In this document: positions 31,319-39,005 of the stretch, in pieces | How positions within the stretch are numbered: position 1 is the stretch's first letter | Layout of the letters: each line of letters opens with the position of its first letter | Source: a virus | Reading direction: 5' to 3' (one strand) | IMG/VR virus record: IMGVR_UViG_3300021479_000014 | Coordinates: 1-64,000 of that record | Length of the DNA: 64,000 bases | The notes under the pieces: generated by a model | Seen by the model: only the letters and a program-made list of their open reading frames with translations | The model's database searches: none | What the model was told of the DNA's origin: nothing | Translations under genes and position numbers: made by a program

Positions 31319-32332
31319 TCAGCTATATCTTGTCCACATTTCTTCAAAATCTTCTCTGAACCAGCATCGCTGAACTGGGCCACGTTGGTGCCTATATGGA
31401 CGGCTTCTGATTTGGAATTCCACTAGTATGTTACCCAATACTCGTTTTGTGACTTTGTGCTCAGTATAATCAACCTCGAAATCACCGTCCTTATCTTCAC
31501 GTAATGTTTCGCAAAGATAATCTGTGGTGATGATCTTGGCCTTTGTTTTTGTGAACACTTTCTGTGTATCACGCAACACTGACTCTCTTATATCAAGAGT
31601 AGCACTCTCATTCATATACGTGAGAGCCATACTTCTGACTAAATGGCCTCTACCAAAATAGTCAGCAATGGCAATTAGAGGGCGCCACTTGTCTGCATTA
31701 CGTCCAACCATCGAAAGAGGCATTTTCGGATCTGGATCCAAATTTTGACCCGAATGTTCGGCCCATCTATGCAATTGAGATGCATAGTAATGTTCTCTTG
31801 GGCTGAACCTCTCAAGAGGTTTAGATGAGCGATGCAACCTGATTACAACTGATCTACTCATTAGAGTTGCTGGCACTTTACCGATACCAGCAAGTGCAAC
31901 TGGGCCATAAACTGGCCAATTGACTACAGTCTTATCTGGTTGTACGCGCGATACACTTCCACCGAAACTATGCCCGTCATTAAGAATGGATCTCATTCTC
32001 TTAACGATTGACATATTGTCCACTTCGTCAATCAACAATGAGTGTTTGTTGGCTAGACGAAGCAGAGATGCTTCAGATGGATCTATCACTCTTTTGGATT
32101 CCCACGCCATTGCACCAAGAATATTCAGAACTGTGCTCTTTCCACAATTCGGAACAGGACTGAGGATAGTCAATCTTGGTGACTTATCGTATTGCATGAA
32201 GACGTGAGTATGTAGCGCCCATAGAGCTGCGCCCCACATATAGTGTGGTTTAGCATCCATATAAGTGTCGAAGACCTTTACCACTTGATCAAGTGGATTT
32301 GGCGCTATGGTAGTTTTCTTTGTCAGACTCAC
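31319..32332 (-). CDS. DUF3631-domain P-loop protein
   Basis: LWALHTH, SPVPNCGKST, LLIDEVD, LMSRS, RNADKWRPL.AIAD. Confidence 0.75.
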   Translation of the reverse strand: MSLTKKTTIAPNPLDQVVKVFDTYMDAKPHYMWGAALWALHTHVFMQYDKSPRLTILSPVPNCGKSTVLNILGAMAWESKRVIDPSEASLLRLANKHSLLIDEVDNMSIVKRMRSILNDGHSFGGSVSRVQPDKTVVNWPVYGPVALAGIGKVPATLMSRSVVIRLHRSSKPLERFSPREHYYASQLHRWAEHSGQNLDPDPKMPLSMVGRNADKWRPLIAIADYFGRGHLVRSMALTYMNESATLDIRESVLRDTQKVFTKTKAKIITTDYLCETLREDKDGDFEVDYTEHKVTKRVLGNILVEFQIRSRPYRHQRGPVQRCWFREDFEEMWTRYS

Positions 32333-32454
32333 AACGGTTCTCCTAATAGGCCGAAATTACGTGCAAAGTTACACGTATGGCTTGGCAGTATTGCCTAAAA
32401 GGTGAGCCGTCCATAGGCGATTTACGATGTCAAACAGCACATTGGTCTAGCCCT

Positions 32455-32483
32455 ATTATAGCACGTTTTCTAATGTGAAGCAA
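32455..32483 (-). promoter_or_regulatory. sigma70-type promoter
   Basis: TTGCTT-17-TATAAT with extended TG. Confidence 0.7.
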
Positions 32484-32609
32484 ACCCACATTAAATAGTG
32501 GCGCATCAAGTCATCTATCACCATTATCAATAGCTGATGATATTTGACAATTGAACATGGCAAATCTGTGTATGAATTCTGAACCGCCAAAGTGCGGCAA
32601 AAATAGGGC

Positions 32610-32638
32610 TTGCCTTCCTTCGCGATTTCGGCTAGACT
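32610..32638 (+). promoter_or_regulatory. sigma70-type promoter
   Basis: TTGCCT-17-TAGACT. Confidence 0.65.
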
Positions 32639-32644
32639 ACCCTC

Positions 32645-33205
32645 TAGCCCGCTATAGGCGCGGGCGAAGACGATCTGATCTGACTTCTACTGCGGTTACA
32701 CTTGACATTCCGCCGAAAGCGGTCTCTGCGGTTTTTGACAGATCCTACGACCCGCTGTTTGACATTCGAGGATTGCTTTATGCCGGCTGGGCTCGTCCGT
32801 GTTCGGGGCTGATTACGCATGTCTGAAGACATGCGGAGAATCAACAGGAGCGGTAAAAGGATCACTCGTAGAATAGCGCAAGTATCACGGGGTTGCGAAG
32901 AACAACGCTCTGATACGAAAGGCAAGCGCATGACAAGTTGCCTGAGGATGTTTGACCAGCCTTAGATGCAGGAAAACAGATTTGACGAACTCATGTAACA
33001 CCCTGTTGAGTCCAAAAAGGCAAGAGACAGTGTTTTGAGGGTGCAAACTGGACGGGAAAAGAAACCGTACGTGGCGAGCAAGGGAACATCCGAAACCCAG
33101 ACATTGTGCGATAGTGTCTGGTGACCCAAAAAATCAAAGACAGCAATACAGAGCACAGCGGGATGAAATAATCCTGCTGTGTTCAATAGTGCTGTCAGCA
33201 CTAGA
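32645..33205 (+). ncRNA. long structured leader/ncRNA
   Basis: About 560 nt without a credible ORF; multiple hairpins; boxA-like GCTGTTTGACAT. Confidence 0.5.
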
Positions 33206-33219
33206 AAGGAGAAATCAAA

Positions 33220-33654
33220 ATGTCTTATAGAAGTAAAAAGATTCAAAAAGAAAAGCATGAATCTTATTCTGCATCATTGCGACAAATAGTTCTCTCAACA
33301 ACAAGAGAACGTCTACCACAACAAGACGGATATGTTGTGGCTCAAACGCCAAGAAAGAAGCGTTCTAAGTGGCGTATCGTAATTGATCCTGAAAATAGCA
33401 AGAAAACGCGAAAAGTTTCAGGATTCAGAATTAAAACATCAATTAAAGATCCAACTGTCAATCGTTATAGAGAAAACGATCAGAATTTAGGATATATCAA
33501 CAAGAAGAAGTATTATGGGAGGTTTACGACTAATCCAAAGACCAAAGGGCGCGTCTTAGCTGTTATTCAGCAACCAGCGCAAGCAGCGTCTCAAGAGTCA
33601 GAATATATGCAGATCGAAGGAATAGTCATCGAAGGCGAGTATACTGAGGAGTAA
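33220..33654 (+). CDS. basic hypothetical protein
   Basis: AAGGAG RBS; Arg/Lys-rich. Confidence 0.65.
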   Translation: MSYRSKKIQKEKHESYSASLRQIVLSTTRERLPQQDGYVVAQTPRKKRSKWRIVIDPENSKKTRKVSGFRIKTSIKDPTVNRYRENDQNLGYINKKKYYGRFTTNPKTKGRVLAVIQQPAQAASQESEYMQIEGIVIEGEYTEE

Positions 33655-33659
33655 GTACA

Positions 33660-33815
33660 ATGCGTGTCAAACACTTCGTGCATTCTAATCAACCAGAACA
33701 GAAGCGCACCAGAATAGAGATTGAACTGCGAATGATGAATAATCGCAGAAAGAAAAGAGGACCAATAACACTAAAGCAACTAAACTTCATAAACAAACAA
33801 CCACAGGAGAAGTAA
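33660..33815 (+). CDS. 51-aa basic protein
   Basis: GAGGAG RBS; fills gap between genes. Confidence 0.5.
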   Translation: MRVKHFVHSNQPEQKRTRIEIELRMMNNRRKKRGPITLKQLNFINKQPQEK

Positions 33816-33816
33816 A

Positions 33817-34149
33817 ATGGCCGTATATGCGTTTGGACACCCAGGACAATGGTGGGCTGATGTAATGGGTAAAAGATACCCTTGCGTTGGCGCAATGCGA
33901 ATAAAGAATGACCACTACCAACAAGCGTATTCTCTTAATAAAGAGAAGTCGTGGAACCTCATAGAGGAAATTGAGGAGCTTCAAAAGGTTATAGTCAGAG
34001 AGGAAATACTGCAAGCTAATGGCATCTATAAAGTGATAGGATATGTTGGCTTATTTCATGTACTCAATTTTATAGTAACAATTACTGATACCCACAAGAT
34101 CGTTGATTTCGATCTTGGTCCGAAAATTGTTACGATCAAAAACCGCTAA
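33817..34149 (+). CDS. hypothetical protein
   Basis: AGGAG RBS. Confidence 0.65.
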   Translation: MAVYAFGHPGQWWADVMGKRYPCVGAMRIKNDHYQQAYSLNKEKSWNLIEEIEELQKVIVREEILQANGIYKVIGYVGLFHVLNFIVTITDTHKIVDFDLGPKIVTIKNR

Positions 34150-34164
34150 CCACAGGAGAGTAAA

Positions 34165-34410
34165 ATGGCAAACATAAGCATACCGGTGGAACTTATCGAC
34201 AGCTTCAACTACTTCCTCAATAAGGGAGCTGGCGATCACAAAGCGAAGCCAATGATAGACGAACTTGGAATGACTAAGATAAGAAAGATAATGAAATTAA
34301 GAACGTTCTTCAATAAGAACGAGCAATATGGATACAGAATTGTTGCTCATGGTCCAGACGATAAAGAAGAAACTGGAGATGATAGCTATTACGAATTCAT
34401 ATTTCCGTAA
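34165..34410 (+). CDS. hypothetical protein
   Basis: AGGAG RBS. Confidence 0.65.
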   Translation: MANISIPVELIDSFNYFLNKGAGDHKAKPMIDELGMTKIRKIMKLRTFFNKNEQYGYRIVAHGPDDKEETGDDSYYEFIFP

Positions 34411-34413
34411 ATA

Positions 34414-34476
34414 GATCGAAACAGCCAGTGCGATTGGCTGTCCTAGCGTTTGGCGCTAGCTGATGAGATCAGTAAC
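34414..34476 (+). ncRNA. type II hammerhead ribozyme
   Basis: GATC-GAAA-stem III-GTC-stem I-CTGATGA-GATC; predicted cleavage after 34442. Confidence 0.92.
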
Positions 34477-34488
34477 AGGAGAAGTAAA

Positions 34489-34908
34489 ATGAAGATAAAT
34501 CTTAACATACATATCATGTCGTGGATGTGTCGCGAACATGACATCATCGATCCAGATCTTATCCAACTAAAGAACAATCACGAACAAATGATTGTGGATA
34601 TTTCAGAAAGGATATCAATAAGATTTGATTATCCTCTTTCACATTCTGTATTGCTCCAATTTGGTGGCAAGAAGCCGTGGAGATTATCAGATCTAATTGA
34701 TGTTGTCTGCGCCGGATATGTGAAGATATATGACGAGGAAGATGAAACCAGAACGCTTCCAGCTAGTGCTCCGTTGGATTCGATTCTGGTCAATCGTCCT
34801 AAAACTGACGGCAAGCACGGCATCTGGGGACACATCCTAAATGACTTGTATATTGAAGGAATATACAAAGGATCAGACGGTGTTTGGTTGCTACAAATGG
34901 GATCATAA
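34489..34908 (+). CDS. hypothetical protein
   Basis: RBS after ribozyme; FDYPL..Y.KIY.EE..G.HGIWGH...DL.IE. Confidence 0.7.
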   Translation: MKINLNIHIMSWMCREHDIIDPDLIQLKNNHEQMIVDISERISIRFDYPLSHSVLLQFGGKKPWRLSDLIDVVCAGYVKIYDEEDETRTLPASAPLDSILVNRPKTDGKHGIWGHILNDLYIEGIYKGSDGVWLLQMGS

Positions 34909-34975
34909 GACCGAAAGGGTGGCGCCACAAGCGCCATTCTCCTAGCGTTAGGCGCTAGCTGACGAGGTCAGTAAC
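34909..34975 (+). ncRNA. type II hammerhead ribozyme
   Basis: GACC-GAAA-stem III-CTC-stem I-CTGACGA-GGTC; predicted cleavage after 34941. Confidence 0.92.
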
Positions 34976-34987
34976 AGGAGAACTAAA

Positions 34988-35209
34988 ATGGTAAAAGCAG
35001 TATATTGGTATGGACCAGATAAAACTGGTCACGACGACTTTGGTATGCCATACGGCGATTTTATGTTTGATGGCAAAACAAAGATGGGACCTTGGGCCTG
35101 CATGAGTAGCTATAGCTGGGAGAAACACGGCTGTGGCAAACTCGGAACTGGCTTTGGCCAGAAGTACAAGAGACAGGCTGATGGCCGTTGGCTTAAGGTG
35201 GAGGGTTAA
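34988..35209 (+). CDS. hypothetical protein
   Basis: DGKTKMGPWACM..LGTGFGQKY motif. Confidence 0.7.
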   Translation: MVKAVYWYGPDKTGHDDFGMPYGDFMFDGKTKMGPWACMSSYSWEKHGCGKLGTGFGQKYKRQADGRWLKVEG

Positions 35210-35560
35210 ATGGCGCGCATCAGTGTAAGACGTGGATCTGAAGGTCCAGAACACGATCCGTATTCATATACGGAGATCACGTTCTACTTCACAGATTCTG
35301 AGCGATCAAAAGTCGTTTATCATAGAGGATTAGGTGAGTGGCTTAAATATGGTGGTCGAACATACGACGCTAGTGACAGTTGGTTACCATCGTCAATTGA
35401 CTATCTATTTAAGCACATAACTGGACTCTCAGTTCGTAGAGCCGAAGAGATTCCAGAGATGCTGTTTGAGCGTTCCATGCGTAAATACACTAAAGCTGAG
35501 CGCTGGGCCATCATGGAATGCATCGAAGCCGATGAGGCCATGCTCAGAAACTGCTATTGA
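35210..35560 (+). CDS. hypothetical protein
   Basis: GGAGG RBS. Confidence 0.65.
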   Translation: MARISVRRGSEGPEHDPYSYTEITFYFTDSERSKVVYHRGLGEWLKYGGRTYDASDSWLPSSIDYLFKHITGLSVRRAEEIPEMLFERSMRKYTKAERWAIMECIEADEAMLRNCY

Positions 35561-35564
35561 AATA

Positions 35565-35614
35565 ATTGAACTTTGGAGCGCAGCAATGCGCTCCGCTTTT
35601 AGGCAATTTTGCCA
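35565..35614 (+). repeat. repeated intergenic hairpin motif, copy 1
   Basis: ATTGAACTT-hairpin-CTTTTAGGCAATTTTGCCA. Confidence 0.75.
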
Positions 35615-35630
35615 GACTGAGGAGAATAAA

Positions 35631-35930
35631 ATGAGGTACGTTGTTATCAATAGAGCATGTGATGGAACACATATTTCGTCACATGCTACGTTTGAGAAAG
35701 CACAAAAGCGTGTGGAAGAAATGGTTGGCAGAAGAGAAGGGCCATTCAAACTTAATCAACCCTATTGTTCTGATTGGGGTAACGTTCTCACAATCGAGGA
35801 GCGCCCAGGCAATTGGACTGCGAATACTGAGCGGCGCGTTTCCGAGGCTTTTGATGCTAACGAATGTGGTTTTGCAACAAAGGCTCAAATTAAATTGTTG
35901 CATGAAAAGGGTTGGCTGACAGGAGAGTAA
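35631..35930 (+). CDS. hypothetical protein
   Basis: GAGGAG RBS before ATG 35631. Confidence 0.65.
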   Translation: MRYVVINRACDGTHISSHATFEKAQKRVEEMVGRREGPFKLNQPYCSDWGNVLTIEERPGNWTANTERRVSEAFDANECGFATKAQIKLLHEKGWLTGE

Positions 35931-36125
35931 ATGACAGAAAATCAAGAGTTTAGTATTTGGATGTCAAGGGTAGAATTTTACCTTGAATCTATGGTAAAGA
36001 AGTCGTTGACACTATTGAAGTCATATGACTATCGCGATGACTTCAATAAAGGTTTTCTACCAGAAGAAACAGCAACTCGTGTAATTCAAAGGAGCAGAAA
36101 ATGGCAAAGAAAGACCCGTGGATAA
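35931..36125 (+). CDS. hypothetical protein
   Basis: RBS. Confidence 0.6.
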   Translation: MTENQEFSIWMSRVEFYLESMVKKSLTLLKSYDYRDDFNKGFLPEETATRVIQRSRKWQRKTRG

Positions 36126-36400
36126 TATGCCCTGTCTGTGAAGGAGAGGGAAAGACAGTCAATCCAAATATTGACGCGAATGGATTGACTGCGGAAGACT
36201 TCAATGAAGACCCAGACTTCAGAGAAGACTATATGAGCGGCGTATATGACATTACGTGCGCTGCATGTGGAGGTCAACGCGTCATCAAGAAGCAACGCAT
36301 GAAAGAGCTGGCGCGAAATGCCGAAAGTCGCCGTCTGGCTGCTCGTGAAGATGGCGATTATGAAGGCTATTGCGGCGCTGGTGATTGGAGATATGGATAA
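36101..36400 (+). CDS. Zn-finger hypothetical protein
   Basis: CPVCEGEG..YDITCAACGG. Confidence 0.7.
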   Translation: MAKKDPWIICPVCEGEGKTVNPNIDANGLTAEDFNEDPDFREDYMSGVYDITCAACGGQRVIKKQRMKELARNAESRRLAAREDGDYEGYCGAGDWRYG

Positions 36401-36579
36401 TGCATATCCTCCTTACCATAATTGTTATCATTGTACTAGTGGTTGTTTTTAGCAACCTAAATCAACAAGGAGTGATAACAGCTTGGAAAGGTCCAAATAA
36501 CAATCTTGGTTGTATACCATTATTGTTAGTCTTTATATTTACCATTTGGGCCTTATGCCAATTGCCTGTAATACATTGA
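36400..36579 (+). CDS. small two-TM membrane protein
   Basis: Two hydrophobic segments. Confidence 0.55.
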   Translation: MHILLTIIVIIVLVVVFSNLNQQGVITAWKGPNNNLGCIPLLLVFIFTIWALCQLPVIH

Positions 36580-36624
36580 ACTTAATGGCAGGTGCGATCT
36601 GCCATCTTTTAGGCAATTTTGCCA
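36575..36624 (+). repeat. repeated intergenic hairpin motif, copy 2
   Basis: Same flanks as copy 1, different stem sequence. Confidence 0.75.
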
Positions 36625-36639
36625 AACTAGGAGAATAAA

Positions 36640-36897
36640 ATGGATAATCCTACAGTAGTGGTAGAAATAGAAGTGGATGCCGTACAAGAGGCCATCCAAA
36701 CAATCCGAAAGATCAATAGCAAGATTGCTTGGGTGCTGGAAAATAATCCGCCATACAAGCAGAAGGAGCTTGATGATCTGAAGTATCGCAACGCCAATCT
36801 TACACTGGTTGAGTTGCGCCTCACTAAAGCTCTGAGCGATAGGGCTTTGGCCAATCAAGCCAAGGGCAATGTCGTTAAGATGGGAGGCAAGAAATGA
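36640..36897 (+). CDS. hypothetical protein
   Basis: AGGAG RBS. Confidence 0.65.
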   Translation: MDNPTVVVEIEVDAVQEAIQTIRKINSKIAWVLENNPPYKQKELDDLKYRNANLTLVELRLTKALSDRALANQAKGNVVKMGGKK

Positions 36898-37139
36898 GAA
36901 AGGCTCTATTGGCAGAATATAAAGTCAAGCCAAATGGCACAAAACTCCTTGACGATTTCAGAGGAGACAGAATTTATGGTAATTGTTATATTATCATAAA
37001 GGCTGGCGTAGAAATCTACGAGGTTATTACCTCAACGTTGGGTGATTGGTGTAACTGCCCAGCCGGACAACATGAGAAGAAATGCAAGCATCTATCTATG
37101 GTGTATGATTTCAAAGAGAAGGAAGAAAAGGTCATATGA
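36894..37139 (+). CDS. SWIM zinc-finger protein
   Basis: WCNCPA....CKH. Confidence 0.7.
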   Translation: MRKALLAEYKVKPNGTKLLDDFRGDRIYGNCYIIIKAGVEIYEVITSTLGDWCNCPAGQHEKKCKHLSMVYDFKEKEEKVI

Positions 37140-37348
37140 AATACAATGCGACGTGTACGCTTCAAGCAGTACATATCAAAACTGGCAAAGTGATAGATAT
37201 TTGTCAGTTTGATTCTTCTCCTCTTGAGATAGAAGCATCTTCACAAGAAGACGCAGACGAAAAATGGTCCAGACGCTGCCTCATCGAGGCAATGTGCTCT
37301 GGTTCTGATATAGCCAGAAAAGAATACAAGCAAGGGAAATGGAAATGA
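37136..37348 (+). CDS. hypothetical protein
   Basis: Coupled ORF. Confidence 0.55.
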   Translation: MKYNATCTLQAVHIKTGKVIDICQFDSSPLEIEASSQEDADEKWSRRCLIEAMCSGSDIARKEYKQGKWK

Positions 37349-37593
37349 ATAAACAAGACAAAGCCAGGTATCCTTTTATACGTGCCTGGGGCTACCAACT
37401 TGGTTCTTTTCAATATTATATCGAGAGTGAAATTGAAAGAGCCATTCGAGAAAATGCTCCTGAGCGTGCCATTTATAAAAGTGGTGCAGGAGGGTGGCGA
37501 ACTATAGATGACTGCAAGGATGAAGCAGTCAAACAACAGTGTATTGATTGGGTAGAAGCACATAAGAACGATCAATACGTTTCTGACGAATAA
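37345..37593 (+). CDS. hypothetical protein
   Basis: IRAWG..LGS..YYI..A...NAP..AIY motif. Confidence 0.65.
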   Translation: MNKQDKARYPFIRAWGYQLGSFQYYIESEIERAIRENAPERAIYKSGAGGWRTIDDCKDEAVKQQCIDWVEAHKNDQYVSDE

Positions 37594-37660
37594 GACCGAA
37601 ACTGGCCGCAGTGATGCGCCCAGTCGTTGCGTAATGCGCAGCCTGACGATGGTCAGTAAC
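37594..37660 (+). ncRNA. type II hammerhead ribozyme (extra U before stem II)
   Basis: GACC-GAAA-CTGG..CCAG-TC-GTTGCG/CGCAGC-CTGACGA-T-GGTC; predicted cleavage after 37625. Confidence 0.88.
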
Positions 37661-37674
37661 CCAAGGAGATGTAA

Positions 37675-37818
37675 ATGGGCGATCCAGAAGAGCATAAAGA
37701 CGAAGAGTTGACTGTAAAATCTGATGCTCCAAAGGAAGAAGGGCCAAAAACAGATCCAGAAGAGAAAGAGGCGGATCCAATTCGCCCAGGAGAAGGCGGA
37801 CAACCTGAAGTAGCGTAA
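37675..37818 (+). CDS. 47-aa acidic peptide
   Basis: AAGGAG RBS; MGDPEEHKDEE...PEVA; not in ORF track. Confidence 0.6.
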   Translation: MGDPEEHKDEELTVKSDAPKEEGPKTDPEEKEADPIRPGEGGQPEVA

Positions 37819-37825
37819 TCAACTT

Positions 37826-37860
37826 GCCGCTCCCATTTTAGGGAGGATGGGAGCGGTTTT
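37826..37860 (+). terminator. intrinsic terminator-like hairpin
   Basis: CCGCTCCCAT..ATGGGAGCGG-TTTT. Confidence 0.6.
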
Positions 37861-37875
37861 AACTAGGGATGGAAA

Positions 37876-38085
37876 ATGATAACCATAAAAGAAATCACTT
37901 CTATGAAAGAGTTTGCTATCATAAGAAGTGCTTTGGAACTATATGTCGCTACTCTGAGTGAAGAGTATGACAGTAAGCAAACACGCCTCAAACTTAAAAA
38001 ACTTGAGGAAGCCCAAAAATGTCTGAAAGACTTCAAACAACTAGGAGAACAAAATGGCAAACTTCAAAAGGCTACCGTCACTTAA
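37876..38085 (+). CDS. hypothetical protein
   Basis: Operon context. Confidence 0.55.
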   Translation: MITIKEITSMKEFAIIRSALELYVATLSEEYDSKQTRLKLKKLEEAQKCLKDFKQLGEQNGKLQKATVT

Positions 38086-38323
38086 ACCCTGCCATTGCGG
38101 CAGCGGTTTGGAAAGAGAAGCGCGTTATGATGCGCGTGGAATCTTCCTCACATATGTCTGCGAGAAGTGTGTGGAAGAGAAACTGGGTAAATTTCGCCCG
38201 GAAGTTCTAACTGATCCCAATTATGATCTTATGGGAGAAGAGTTAGACGATGATGGTGATCTTGCAGATCCTGATATTCATCGCGATCTGCCGGATTTTG
38301 AAGATCCGGATGTTCTCAGATGA
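38054..38323 (+). CDS. Zn-binding hypothetical protein
   Basis: CHCGSG..YDARGI...VCEKC, acidic tail. Confidence 0.7.
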   Translation: MANFKRLPSLKPCHCGSGLEREARYDARGIFLTYVCEKCVEEKLGKFRPEVLTDPNYDLMGEELDDDGDLADPDIHRDLPDFEDPDVLR

Positions 38324-38679
38324 AAACTCTTATCACGATGGGTGCGCTGCTAATTTCAGGCAGCGCACAGGCTATGTGTGATTTTGAACATCATTGCTAT
38401 CAAGATACACCACCGCCGCAAGTATATCATAATCTAAACGGAGACGTGATACCGCCTCCGCCTCCTCAATATCCTAAGCCTAATCAAATTATAGTTCATG
38501 CACCAACACCACAAGTGACAATAAATGCGAATGTTTGTAAGTTGGTAAGAATTAGAGTAGCGCCAGAAGCTCCACAAACAATAGTTGAAATCTGCACAAT
38601 GTCTGATGATGAAGAAAGAATGTATCGTCAGAGACAGAGTCAACTACAAGCATCTATTCCACAATTTCAACCCTATTAA
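38320..38679 (+). CDS. secreted Pro-rich protein
   Basis: Signal peptide ending AQA. Confidence 0.6.
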   Translation: MKTLITMGALLISGSAQAMCDFEHHCYQDTPPPQVYHNLNGDVIPPPPPQYPKPNQIIVHAPTPQVTINANVCKLVRIRVAPEAPQTIVEICTMSDDEERMYRQRQSQLQASIPQFQPY

Positions 38680-38736
38680 GGAATCACCTGGTCTTTTCAA
38701 CAGCCCCCCGGTTGTTATAGGCCAGGTGAAGACTTG

Positions 38737-38773
38737 CCGCCAGGATTTGTACTGCGTACCTGGCGGATTTTTT
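38737..38773 (+). terminator. intrinsic terminator
   Basis: CCGCCAGG..CCTGGCGG-ATTTTTT, preceded by a second long hairpin at about 38684-38729. Confidence 0.65.
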
Positions 38774-38792
38774 GTCAATTTAGGAGGCAGTA

Positions 38793-39005
38793 ATGGCAAC
38801 CTATCATTATTCCATGTTGGGAATGGTAAGAGTAAGACAACTTCCAGATAAATGGGTACTTGAAGTATCCTACAAGGATGAGGATGTCCAATCTGGATAT
38901 TACAAACATGACCAGATATGGCACCTAGTAGGCGAATGTTCTGATCTTGTCCAAGTAGGTGAACTAGTTTTGAACCTATGCAAAGAGGAGACCAAACGTG
39001 TCTGA
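38793..39005 (+). CDS. hypothetical protein
   Basis: AGGAGG RBS. Confidence 0.65.
   Translation: MATYHYSMLGMVRVRQLPDKWVLEVSYKDEDVQSGYYKHDQIWHLVGECSDLVQVGELVLNLCKEETKRV

Follow-up and report, generated by a model that had tools for sequence, protein, structure and literature searches.

What do three short, related elements do in the early region of a soil phage, where each fills the gap between the stop codon of one small gene and the Shine-Dalgarno (SD) sequence of the next? The elements lie in the IMG/VR virus record IMGVR_UViG_3300021479_000014, an 80,609-bp genome rated complete by CheckV, of which the first 64 kb form the stretch analyzed here, called the window. A preliminary reading made from the letters of the window alone, referred to below as the sequence-only reading, had taken them for type II hammerhead ribozymes that punctuate the early operon. 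On the evidence of sequence and covariation, the three elements are confirmed as genuine type II hammerheads in a classic phage context. The role that we favor, with moderate confidence, is that they would process the early transcript to give units capped by hairpins on both sides, and that an additional hairpin, in which the tail of the ribozyme pairs with its catalytic core, would lock the cut product.

The source is an uncultured, non-integrated soil phage known from metagenomes. Among public sequencing runs, 11 DNA runs from soil metagenome match the stretch. The large terminase (TerL) shares no more than 33% identity with its counterpart in any cultured phage, as judged from the best tblastn match, and a megablast search of positions 33000-39000 against cultured phages gave no match. 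tRNA genes were sought in the phage and none was found. The hammerheads sit on the + strand, within a run of small co-oriented early genes.

Three type II hammerheads between stop codons and ribosome-binding sites

All three copies, named HH1 to HH3, were found at the sites where the sequence-only reading had placed them, with every invariant position intact. Each carries GAAA (G12-A15.1), U16.1-C17, and CUGAYGA, an open stem II of 4 bp, a closed stem I of 6 bp with a 5-nucleotide (nt) loop, and a closed stem III. The conserved core (C3-U4-G5-A6-N7-G8-A9, G12-A13-A14, and an H17 that is not G) is present in each, and the parts follow one another in the type II order: stem II 5′ strand, GAAA, stem III, H17, stem I, CUGANGA, and stem II 3′ strand. 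Three helices are formed, including the pairs A15.1-U16.1 and G10.1-C11.1, and compensatory changes are found in them. HH1 and HH2 have an identical stem I, while HH3 carries an extra U between A9 and G10.1, which had previously been overlooked and which recurs in 30 of the 147 elements of the wider class described below. The predicted scissile bonds, 34442/34443, 34941/34942, and 37625/37626, coincide with the cleavage positions proposed earlier.

When the whole genome was scanned on both strands with a strict descriptor, these three elements and no others were retrieved, and the scan gave none in 40 genomes simulated from a first-order Markov model. The tail pattern CTGANGA..AGTAAC was seen three times against 0.01 expected. 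We then scored the window with a covariance model, R1, built from 98 type II hammerheads on other IMG/VR contigs, the window and its relatives being excluded. The three copies reached E values of 5e-15 to 1e-11, the next match in the 64 kb being at 13 bits, and the remaining 16.7 kb of the genome gave no match. In an alignment of the window family (32 distinct sequences), 98.6% of the cells are paired, with 113 two-sided changes versus 30 in shuffled alignments (0 of 500 as high), which bears out the earlier statement that the stems covary. Among the 98 unrelated members, the share of paired cells is 96.3%; for stem II, on which no selection had been made beforehand, it is 88.5%, and 3 of the 4 stem II pairs covary. 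The ribozymes are 97-100% identical to those of the closest relatives, the contigs L002, L007, and L009, HH2 being 100% identical in L007 and L009, while the neighboring open reading frames (ORFs) range from 96% down to 21% identity. Such conservation amid diverged genes suggests that the hammerheads are under purifying selection.

The position of the elements relative to the genes is equally strict. Between the upstream stop codon and stem II lie 3 nt at HH1 and none at HH2 and HH3, and the AGTAAC tail is followed by AGGAG or AAGGAG, with the ATG 18-20 nt 3′ of stem II. The stop and SD positions thus agree with the packing between stop codon and ribosome-binding site (RBS), with AGTAAC ahead of the RBS, that the sequence-only reading had described.

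We searched IMG/VR with a pattern in which nothing but the core and the upper part of stem I was fixed. It returned at least 119 phage loci, from which a filter on stems I and III retained 147 distinct elements, with up to nine copies per locus among the matches listed. Stem II has 4 bp in 142 of the 147 elements and covaries in 3 of its 4 pairs. It is preceded by A in all of them and followed by A or G in 129, and loop I has the consensus U-N-A(83%)-N-G(89%). An ORF of at least 40 codons ends at most 25 nt upstream of 130 of the 147 elements; the final base of its stop codon is the invariant A or the first base of stem II (distance −1 or 0) in 68 and lies within 5 nt in 108, and the next start codon is mostly found 16-20 nt 3′ of stem II. 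The register noted for the window, 0-3 nt after a stop codon and then an RBS, thus holds for the whole class. Relatives of the window carry 5-8 copies per early region. In addition, dense arrays of the same class were seen on other phage contigs (L024, L026, L080, L051, and L005): L024 (IMGVR_UViG_3300038412_000035) bears at least nine copies in 8.5 kb, and L026 and L005 bear 5-6 each. Within such contigs, stem II is usually identical among the copies and stem I is variable.

Most type II hammerheads, though not all, form a Watson-Crick pseudoknot between loop I and the 3′ tail (PMC3088659), and the sequence-only reading had suggested such a contact between TAAC of the tail and GTTA of loop I. 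This part of it did not hold: 64.8% of the cells would be paired in the family versus 65.4% after shuffling (345 of 500 shuffles as high). Class-wide, the candidate was likewise rejected, the best helix scoring 2.90 versus 2.89 for permuted tails over the 147 members. Given the invariant A that precedes stem II and the U-N-A-N-G sequence of loop I, a non-Watson-Crick tertiary contact may take the place of the published pseudoknot.

Table 1. Hammerheads, tail hairpins, and neighboring features of the early region
Feature	Position	Strand	Details
Hammerhead 1 (HH1), type II	34413-34476	+	Descriptor scan; 65.0 bits (R1); invariant A 34413; stem II 34414-17 with 34467-70; GAAA 34418-21; stem III 34421-41; C17 34442 (cut 3′ of it); stem I 34443-59; core CUGAUGA 34460-66; tail AGUAAC 34471-76
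Hammerhead 2 (HH2), type II	34908-34975	+	Descriptor scan; 56.1 bits (R1); A 34908, final base of stop TAA; stem II 34909-12 with 34966-69; GAAA 34913-16; C17 34941 (cut 3′ of it); stem I 34942-58; core CUGACGA 34959-65; tail 34970-75
Hammerhead 3 (HH3), type II	37593-37660	+	Descriptor scan; 52.3 bits (R1); A 37593, final base of stop TAA; stem II 37594-97 with 37651-54; C17 37625 (cut 3′ of it); stem I 37626-42; core 37643-49; extra U 37650 after A9; tail 37655-60
Predicted anti-core hairpin, HH1	34460-34472	+	CUGAU 34460-64 with AUCAG 34468-72; −21.8 versus −21.1 kcal/mol for the hammerhead fold
Predicted anti-core hairpin, HH2	34959-34971	+	CUGAC 34959-63 with GUCAG 34967-71; −27.5 versus −27.2 kcal/mol
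Predicted anti-core hairpin, HH3	37643-37656	+	CUGAC 37643-47 with GUCAG 37652-56, loop GAUG; −27.0 versus −24.7 kcal/mol
81-aa gene	34165-34410	+	Stop 34408-10, 3 nt before stem II of HH1
139-aa gene between HH1 and HH2	34489-34908	+	SD AGGAG 34477-81
73-aa gene directly 3′ of HH2	34988-35209	+	SD 34976-80; matches phrog_29767 (no assigned function)
84-aa gene	37339-37593	+	Stop ends at invariant A of HH3; 21% identity to L002, which has a different gene there
47-aa gene directly 3′ of HH3	37675-37818	+	Strongly acidic product; SD 37663-68; 96% identical in L002
Terminator-like hairpin	37827-37856		10 bp, followed by TTTT; directly after the 47-aa gene
Second intergenic motif, copy	35563-35614	+	Repeated element
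Second intergenic motif, copy	36573-36624	+	Repeated element
Second intergenic motif, variant	32383-32400	-	5′ untranslated region of a leftward 337-aa gene

A predicted hairpin between tail and catalytic core

What, then, would the conserved tail pair with? In all three copies C3-U4-G5-A6-N7 is complementary to positions 10.2-10.3-10.4 and the A and G that follow (CUGAY/RUCAG), so that a 5-bp hairpin can form in which the CUGAY catalytic core is sequestered and which is closed by the AG of AGTAAC. This anti-core hairpin draws its strands from the ribozyme core and the 3′ side of stem II, so that it competes with the active fold and cannot coexist with stem II or the active core. Each of the three copies has it as the minimum-energy fold; the two folds are at most 0.7 kcal/mol apart for HH1 and HH2, and the hairpin is the more stable by 2.3 kcal/mol for HH3. 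The remaining UAAC forms an A-rich spacer before the SD, which reads UAAU, UAGC, or AAAA in relatives.

In the family alignment of 32 sequences the hairpin is 92.5% paired. N7, which is unpaired in the hammerhead fold, tracks its hairpin partner: N7/10.2 is C-G in 20 sequences, U-A in 8, and another combination in 4. A hairpin of at least 5 bp is present in 19 of 24 rows of the window family, compared with 4.8 in the null. Outside the family, 31 of 123 elements, which come from 26 of 91 loci, have a helix of at least 5 bp onto the core. The corresponding nulls are 12.7 for tail shuffling (maximum 23 in 500), 23.6 for tail swapping, which tests the N7 match (maximum 30 in 500), and 6-8 for decoy cores. 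In these elements stem II is often unrelated, and a separate GUCAG or AUCAG behind it supplies the 3′ strand. Because loop I is not complementary to them in most cases, the partner of these tails is the core. This additional, conserved hairpin may hold the ribozyme in its cut state.

Proposed processing of the early transcript and the alternatives to it

In bacterial mRNA decay, entry from the 5′ end depends on that end being single-stranded, and neither 3′ exonucleases nor poly(A) polymerase can work without an accessible 3′-OH tail. Each ribozyme, occupying the gap between a stop codon and the next SD, would cut itself after C17. In the upstream piece the last elements would be the stem III hairpin and UC with a 2′,3′-cyclic phosphate, a structured terminus with no 3′-OH for polyadenylation-assisted decay. 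The downstream piece would begin flush at the stem I hairpin, with a 5′-OH and no unpaired nucleotide, a poor entry for 5′-end-dependent RNases. After the cut, the 4-bp stem II would be held only between two molecules, and the anti-core hairpin would win: the 3′ strand of stem II and the following AG would refold onto the CUGAY core, releasing the upstream piece and blocking religation. The outcome would be two hairpins, an A-rich spacer, and a free SD ahead of the next gene. The 3′ products are predicted to fold into the stem I hairpin, the anti-core hairpin, and an unpaired SD.

The early RNA would in this way fall into four parts: a leader with four genes, the single 139-aa gene, the block 34942-37625, and the 47-aa gene with its own terminator-like hairpin. 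Each cistron or cistron block would gain defined ends and an expression of its own, independent of upstream context. After cleavage the 47-aa gene would be a stand-alone monocistronic RNA of roughly 235 nt; the acidic peptide that it encodes is probably disordered. For the 139-aa protein, Pfam and PHROG searches gave no match and the protein atlas gave hypothetical phage clusters only. In the comparison with the relatives, the hammerheads stand at mosaic junctions: the adjoining genes 34165-34410 and 34988-35209 are 59% (L009) and 74% (L007) identical, and 37136-37593 shows 21-60% identity to L002, with one gene replaced. The repeats may double as recombination linkers.

The block 34942-37625 would perhaps be subdivided by a second repeated intergenic element. 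In it, ATTGAACTT is followed by a variable GC-rich hairpin, YC, and, immediately ahead of the SD, TTTTAGGCAATTTTGCCA; the element is conserved in the relatives L003, L007, L008, L011, L013, and L034. It is no hammerhead: the core is missing, and neither R1 nor Rfam gives a match there. The motif may divide the operon as a terminator-plus-promoter or as a binding site for a protein; a scan of 32300-39000 for sigma-70 promoters and terminators found sites no more numerous than in shuffles. Two of its hairpins (36584-36602 and L007:1044-1061) share 19 and 18 identical bases with stem III hairpins of the hammerhead family (L012:910 and HH2 of the window), the control maximum being 11, and at an orthologous site the window and L007 bear different hairpins. 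Modules therefore seem to have been exchanged between both kinds of intergenic element.

Several points weigh against the processing model. Rfam scans at the gathering score and at E≤10, run on the window and on a 621-nt slice, together with a scan of the whole genome with RF02276, gave no hammerhead match. None of the public runs listed as carrying the stretch is an RNA run, and cleavage in this phage is a prediction. Comparison of the flanking proteins with Pfam, PHROGs, and the protein atlas assigned no function to them. The anti-core hairpin, as read from the family alignment, is supported by one covarying pair, with four C.A exceptions in the family; about three quarters of the class members outside the family are without it, and it could equally be a brake acting before cleavage. 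Finally, a 5′-OH end can promote decay by RNase J1 in Firmicutes, as in the glmS precedent, and any stabilizing effect would therefore depend on the host.

With regard to Rfam, the three copies do not reach the RF02276 cut-off of 37 bits, which is a detection threshold and not a defining property. The same model scores GC-rich members of this IMG/VR structural class (L024, L026, and L080) at 27-39 bits and detects none of the 38 hammerheads in the AT-richer family of the window (L003, L013, and the window itself), all of which score 45-66 bits with the model built from other phages. The window elements are therefore ordinary class members that the curated model under-detects.

The anti-core hairpin also gives rise to the leading alternative, a conditional switch, which we regard as unlikely. 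The hairpin would here be an OFF state preceding cleavage, which would be slowed or would depend on a factor, temperature, Mg2+, or terminating ribosomes, and the timing or ratio of early gene expression would be tuned, in place of a simple locking of the product. The near-isoenergetic folds fit this proposal, with the local hairpin as the minimum; so does the stop codon, which in most class members overlaps the 5′ edge of stem II, so that a terminating ribosome would cover the stem II 5′ strand. Regulated hammerheads have also been raised as a possibility (PMC3088659). Against a switch, no ligand- or protein-binding element was identified, the hairpin is absent from about 75% of the class members outside the family, and tertiary contacts that lie outside the energy model may make the active fold dominant.

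The conservation of the elements at cassette boundaries could, alternatively, reflect their use as DNA: near-identical repeats of ~65 nt would favor recombination between related phages and the reshuffling of their genes, with RNA cleavage secondary or neutral. The near-identity of the hammerheads next to genes that have diverged (21% upstream of HH3 and 59% upstream of HH1) agrees with such a role, as do the 18-19 nt that stem III hairpins share with the other intergenic element and the copy number, which varies from 3 to 8 among relatives. Linkers would need no intact core, compensatory changes, or fixed stop/RBS register, yet all of these are kept in at least 100 unrelated contigs. As the primary function this is improbable; as a side effect it is compatible with transcript processing.

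The sequence-only reading had also raised the possibility that the 499-nt fragment 34443-34941 is circularized. This single-gene mRNA would be ligated by host RtcB or by a hybrid hammerhead composed of the 3′ half of HH1 and the 5′ half of HH2. The predicted 5′-OH and 2′,3′-cyclic phosphate ends are substrates of RtcB and of hammerhead ligation (PMC8782182; established enzymology), the fragment holds exactly one SD and one ORF, and the shared stem I of HH1 and HH2 would suit a hybrid. The hybrid stem II (GAUC with GACC) would, however, contain an A.C mismatch, and in the released piece the core would be tied up in the anti-core hairpin. RtcB and Rnl2-type (RNA_ligase) families were sought in the phage and are absent, and circular or spliced products of tandem hammerheads have been sought before and none was detected (PMC3088659). 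Nothing in the present analysis favors circularization by RtcB, and we hold a circle to be very improbable; it is still conceivable because the host enzyme could act. Were this remote case to apply, the circular mRNA would be exonuclease-proof, and the anti-core hairpin would decide which pieces stay linear.

That the elements are inactive relics or chance look-alikes is scarcely credible: they fall below the Rfam reporting threshold, HH3 has its extra U in the junction between core and stem II, and some hammerhead-like candidates assayed in PMC3088659 were inactive, but the invariant core is intact, the independent model gives 52-65 bits, the descriptor scan finds none in the 40 simulated genomes, the stems covary, the elements are conserved at 97-100% amid diverged genes, and the U insertion recurs across the class.

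Comparison with known hammerheads and implications for phages

Type II hammerheads were described by Perreault et al. in 2011 (PMC3088659), who found them often in several copies, flanking single genes in prophages, and who showed that three tandem arrangements cleave in vitro, one of them in E. coli. They proposed that long phage transcripts are processed to gene-length mRNAs, and they considered spliced or circular products, which were not detected; neither the processing reading nor the idea of a circular RNA is therefore new to the literature. Cleavage in vivo has been demonstrated for three bacterial type II hammerheads (PMC8782182), and a 2019 review calls the function of the thousands of bacterial and phage hammerheads still elusive (PMC6765202). 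Beyond these three papers, our search for literature on phage hammerhead function or circular phage mRNAs returned nothing.

The window elements share with Hammerhead_II (RF02276, clan CL00010; PMC3088659) the core, the topology, and the short stem II with its 5′ A, as well as the genomic habit: in phage or prophage DNA, several copies stand around single genes or short gene blocks. They differ in that RF02276 does not report their family, in that the tail is predicted to form the anti-core hairpin, and in the lack of support for a pseudoknot of loop I with the 3′ tail. In the prophage tandems of A. tumefaciens (a triple flanking ardA), C. scindens, and A. caulinodans (PMC3088659), three ribozymes within a few kb divide a polycistronic RNA, as is predicted here; those reside in prophages of cultured bacteria and mix hammerhead types, whereas here all are of type II, the phage is non-integrated, and there is no ardA.

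RiboJ, an engineered insulator composed of the sTRSV hammerhead and a 23-nt hairpin (PMC7536230), has the same order of hammerhead, hairpin, and RBS; a circuit model in that work sets the decay of uncleaved mRNA about 2-fold faster. In RiboJ, as predicted here, cleavage strips the upstream context and leaves a structured 5′-OH leader. RiboJ is engineered, belongs to type III, and has a separate added hairpin, whereas in the phage the ribozyme itself, through its core and the 3′ strand of stem II, would supply the hairpin. The window elements have the layout of an insulator and would act as its natural equivalent; the resemblance observed is one of architecture only. In the haloviruses HF1 and HF2 (PMC3088659), a hammerhead also lies a few nt upstream of the start of an early (helicase) gene, and a mapped transcript 5′ end is near the cleavage site; unlike the present array, it is a single core-variant ribozyme in an archaeal virus.

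The arrangement has been known in phages since 2011, and the find is real but ordinary apart from the hairpin; the known picture of these elements is unchanged. It is a clean natural case, in which a single early operon of a complete phage genome contains three ribozymes; orthologous copies are found in close relatives, and more distant ones have 5-8. As the Rfam model misses AT-rich phage members, counts of phage hammerheads are therefore underestimates, and annotation pipelines will overlook the AT-richer ones. Three rules that can be tested emerge from the survey of the class: a strict stop-ribozyme-RBS register, a subclass that has no pseudoknot, and a recurrent anti-core hairpin that would make cleavage one-way.

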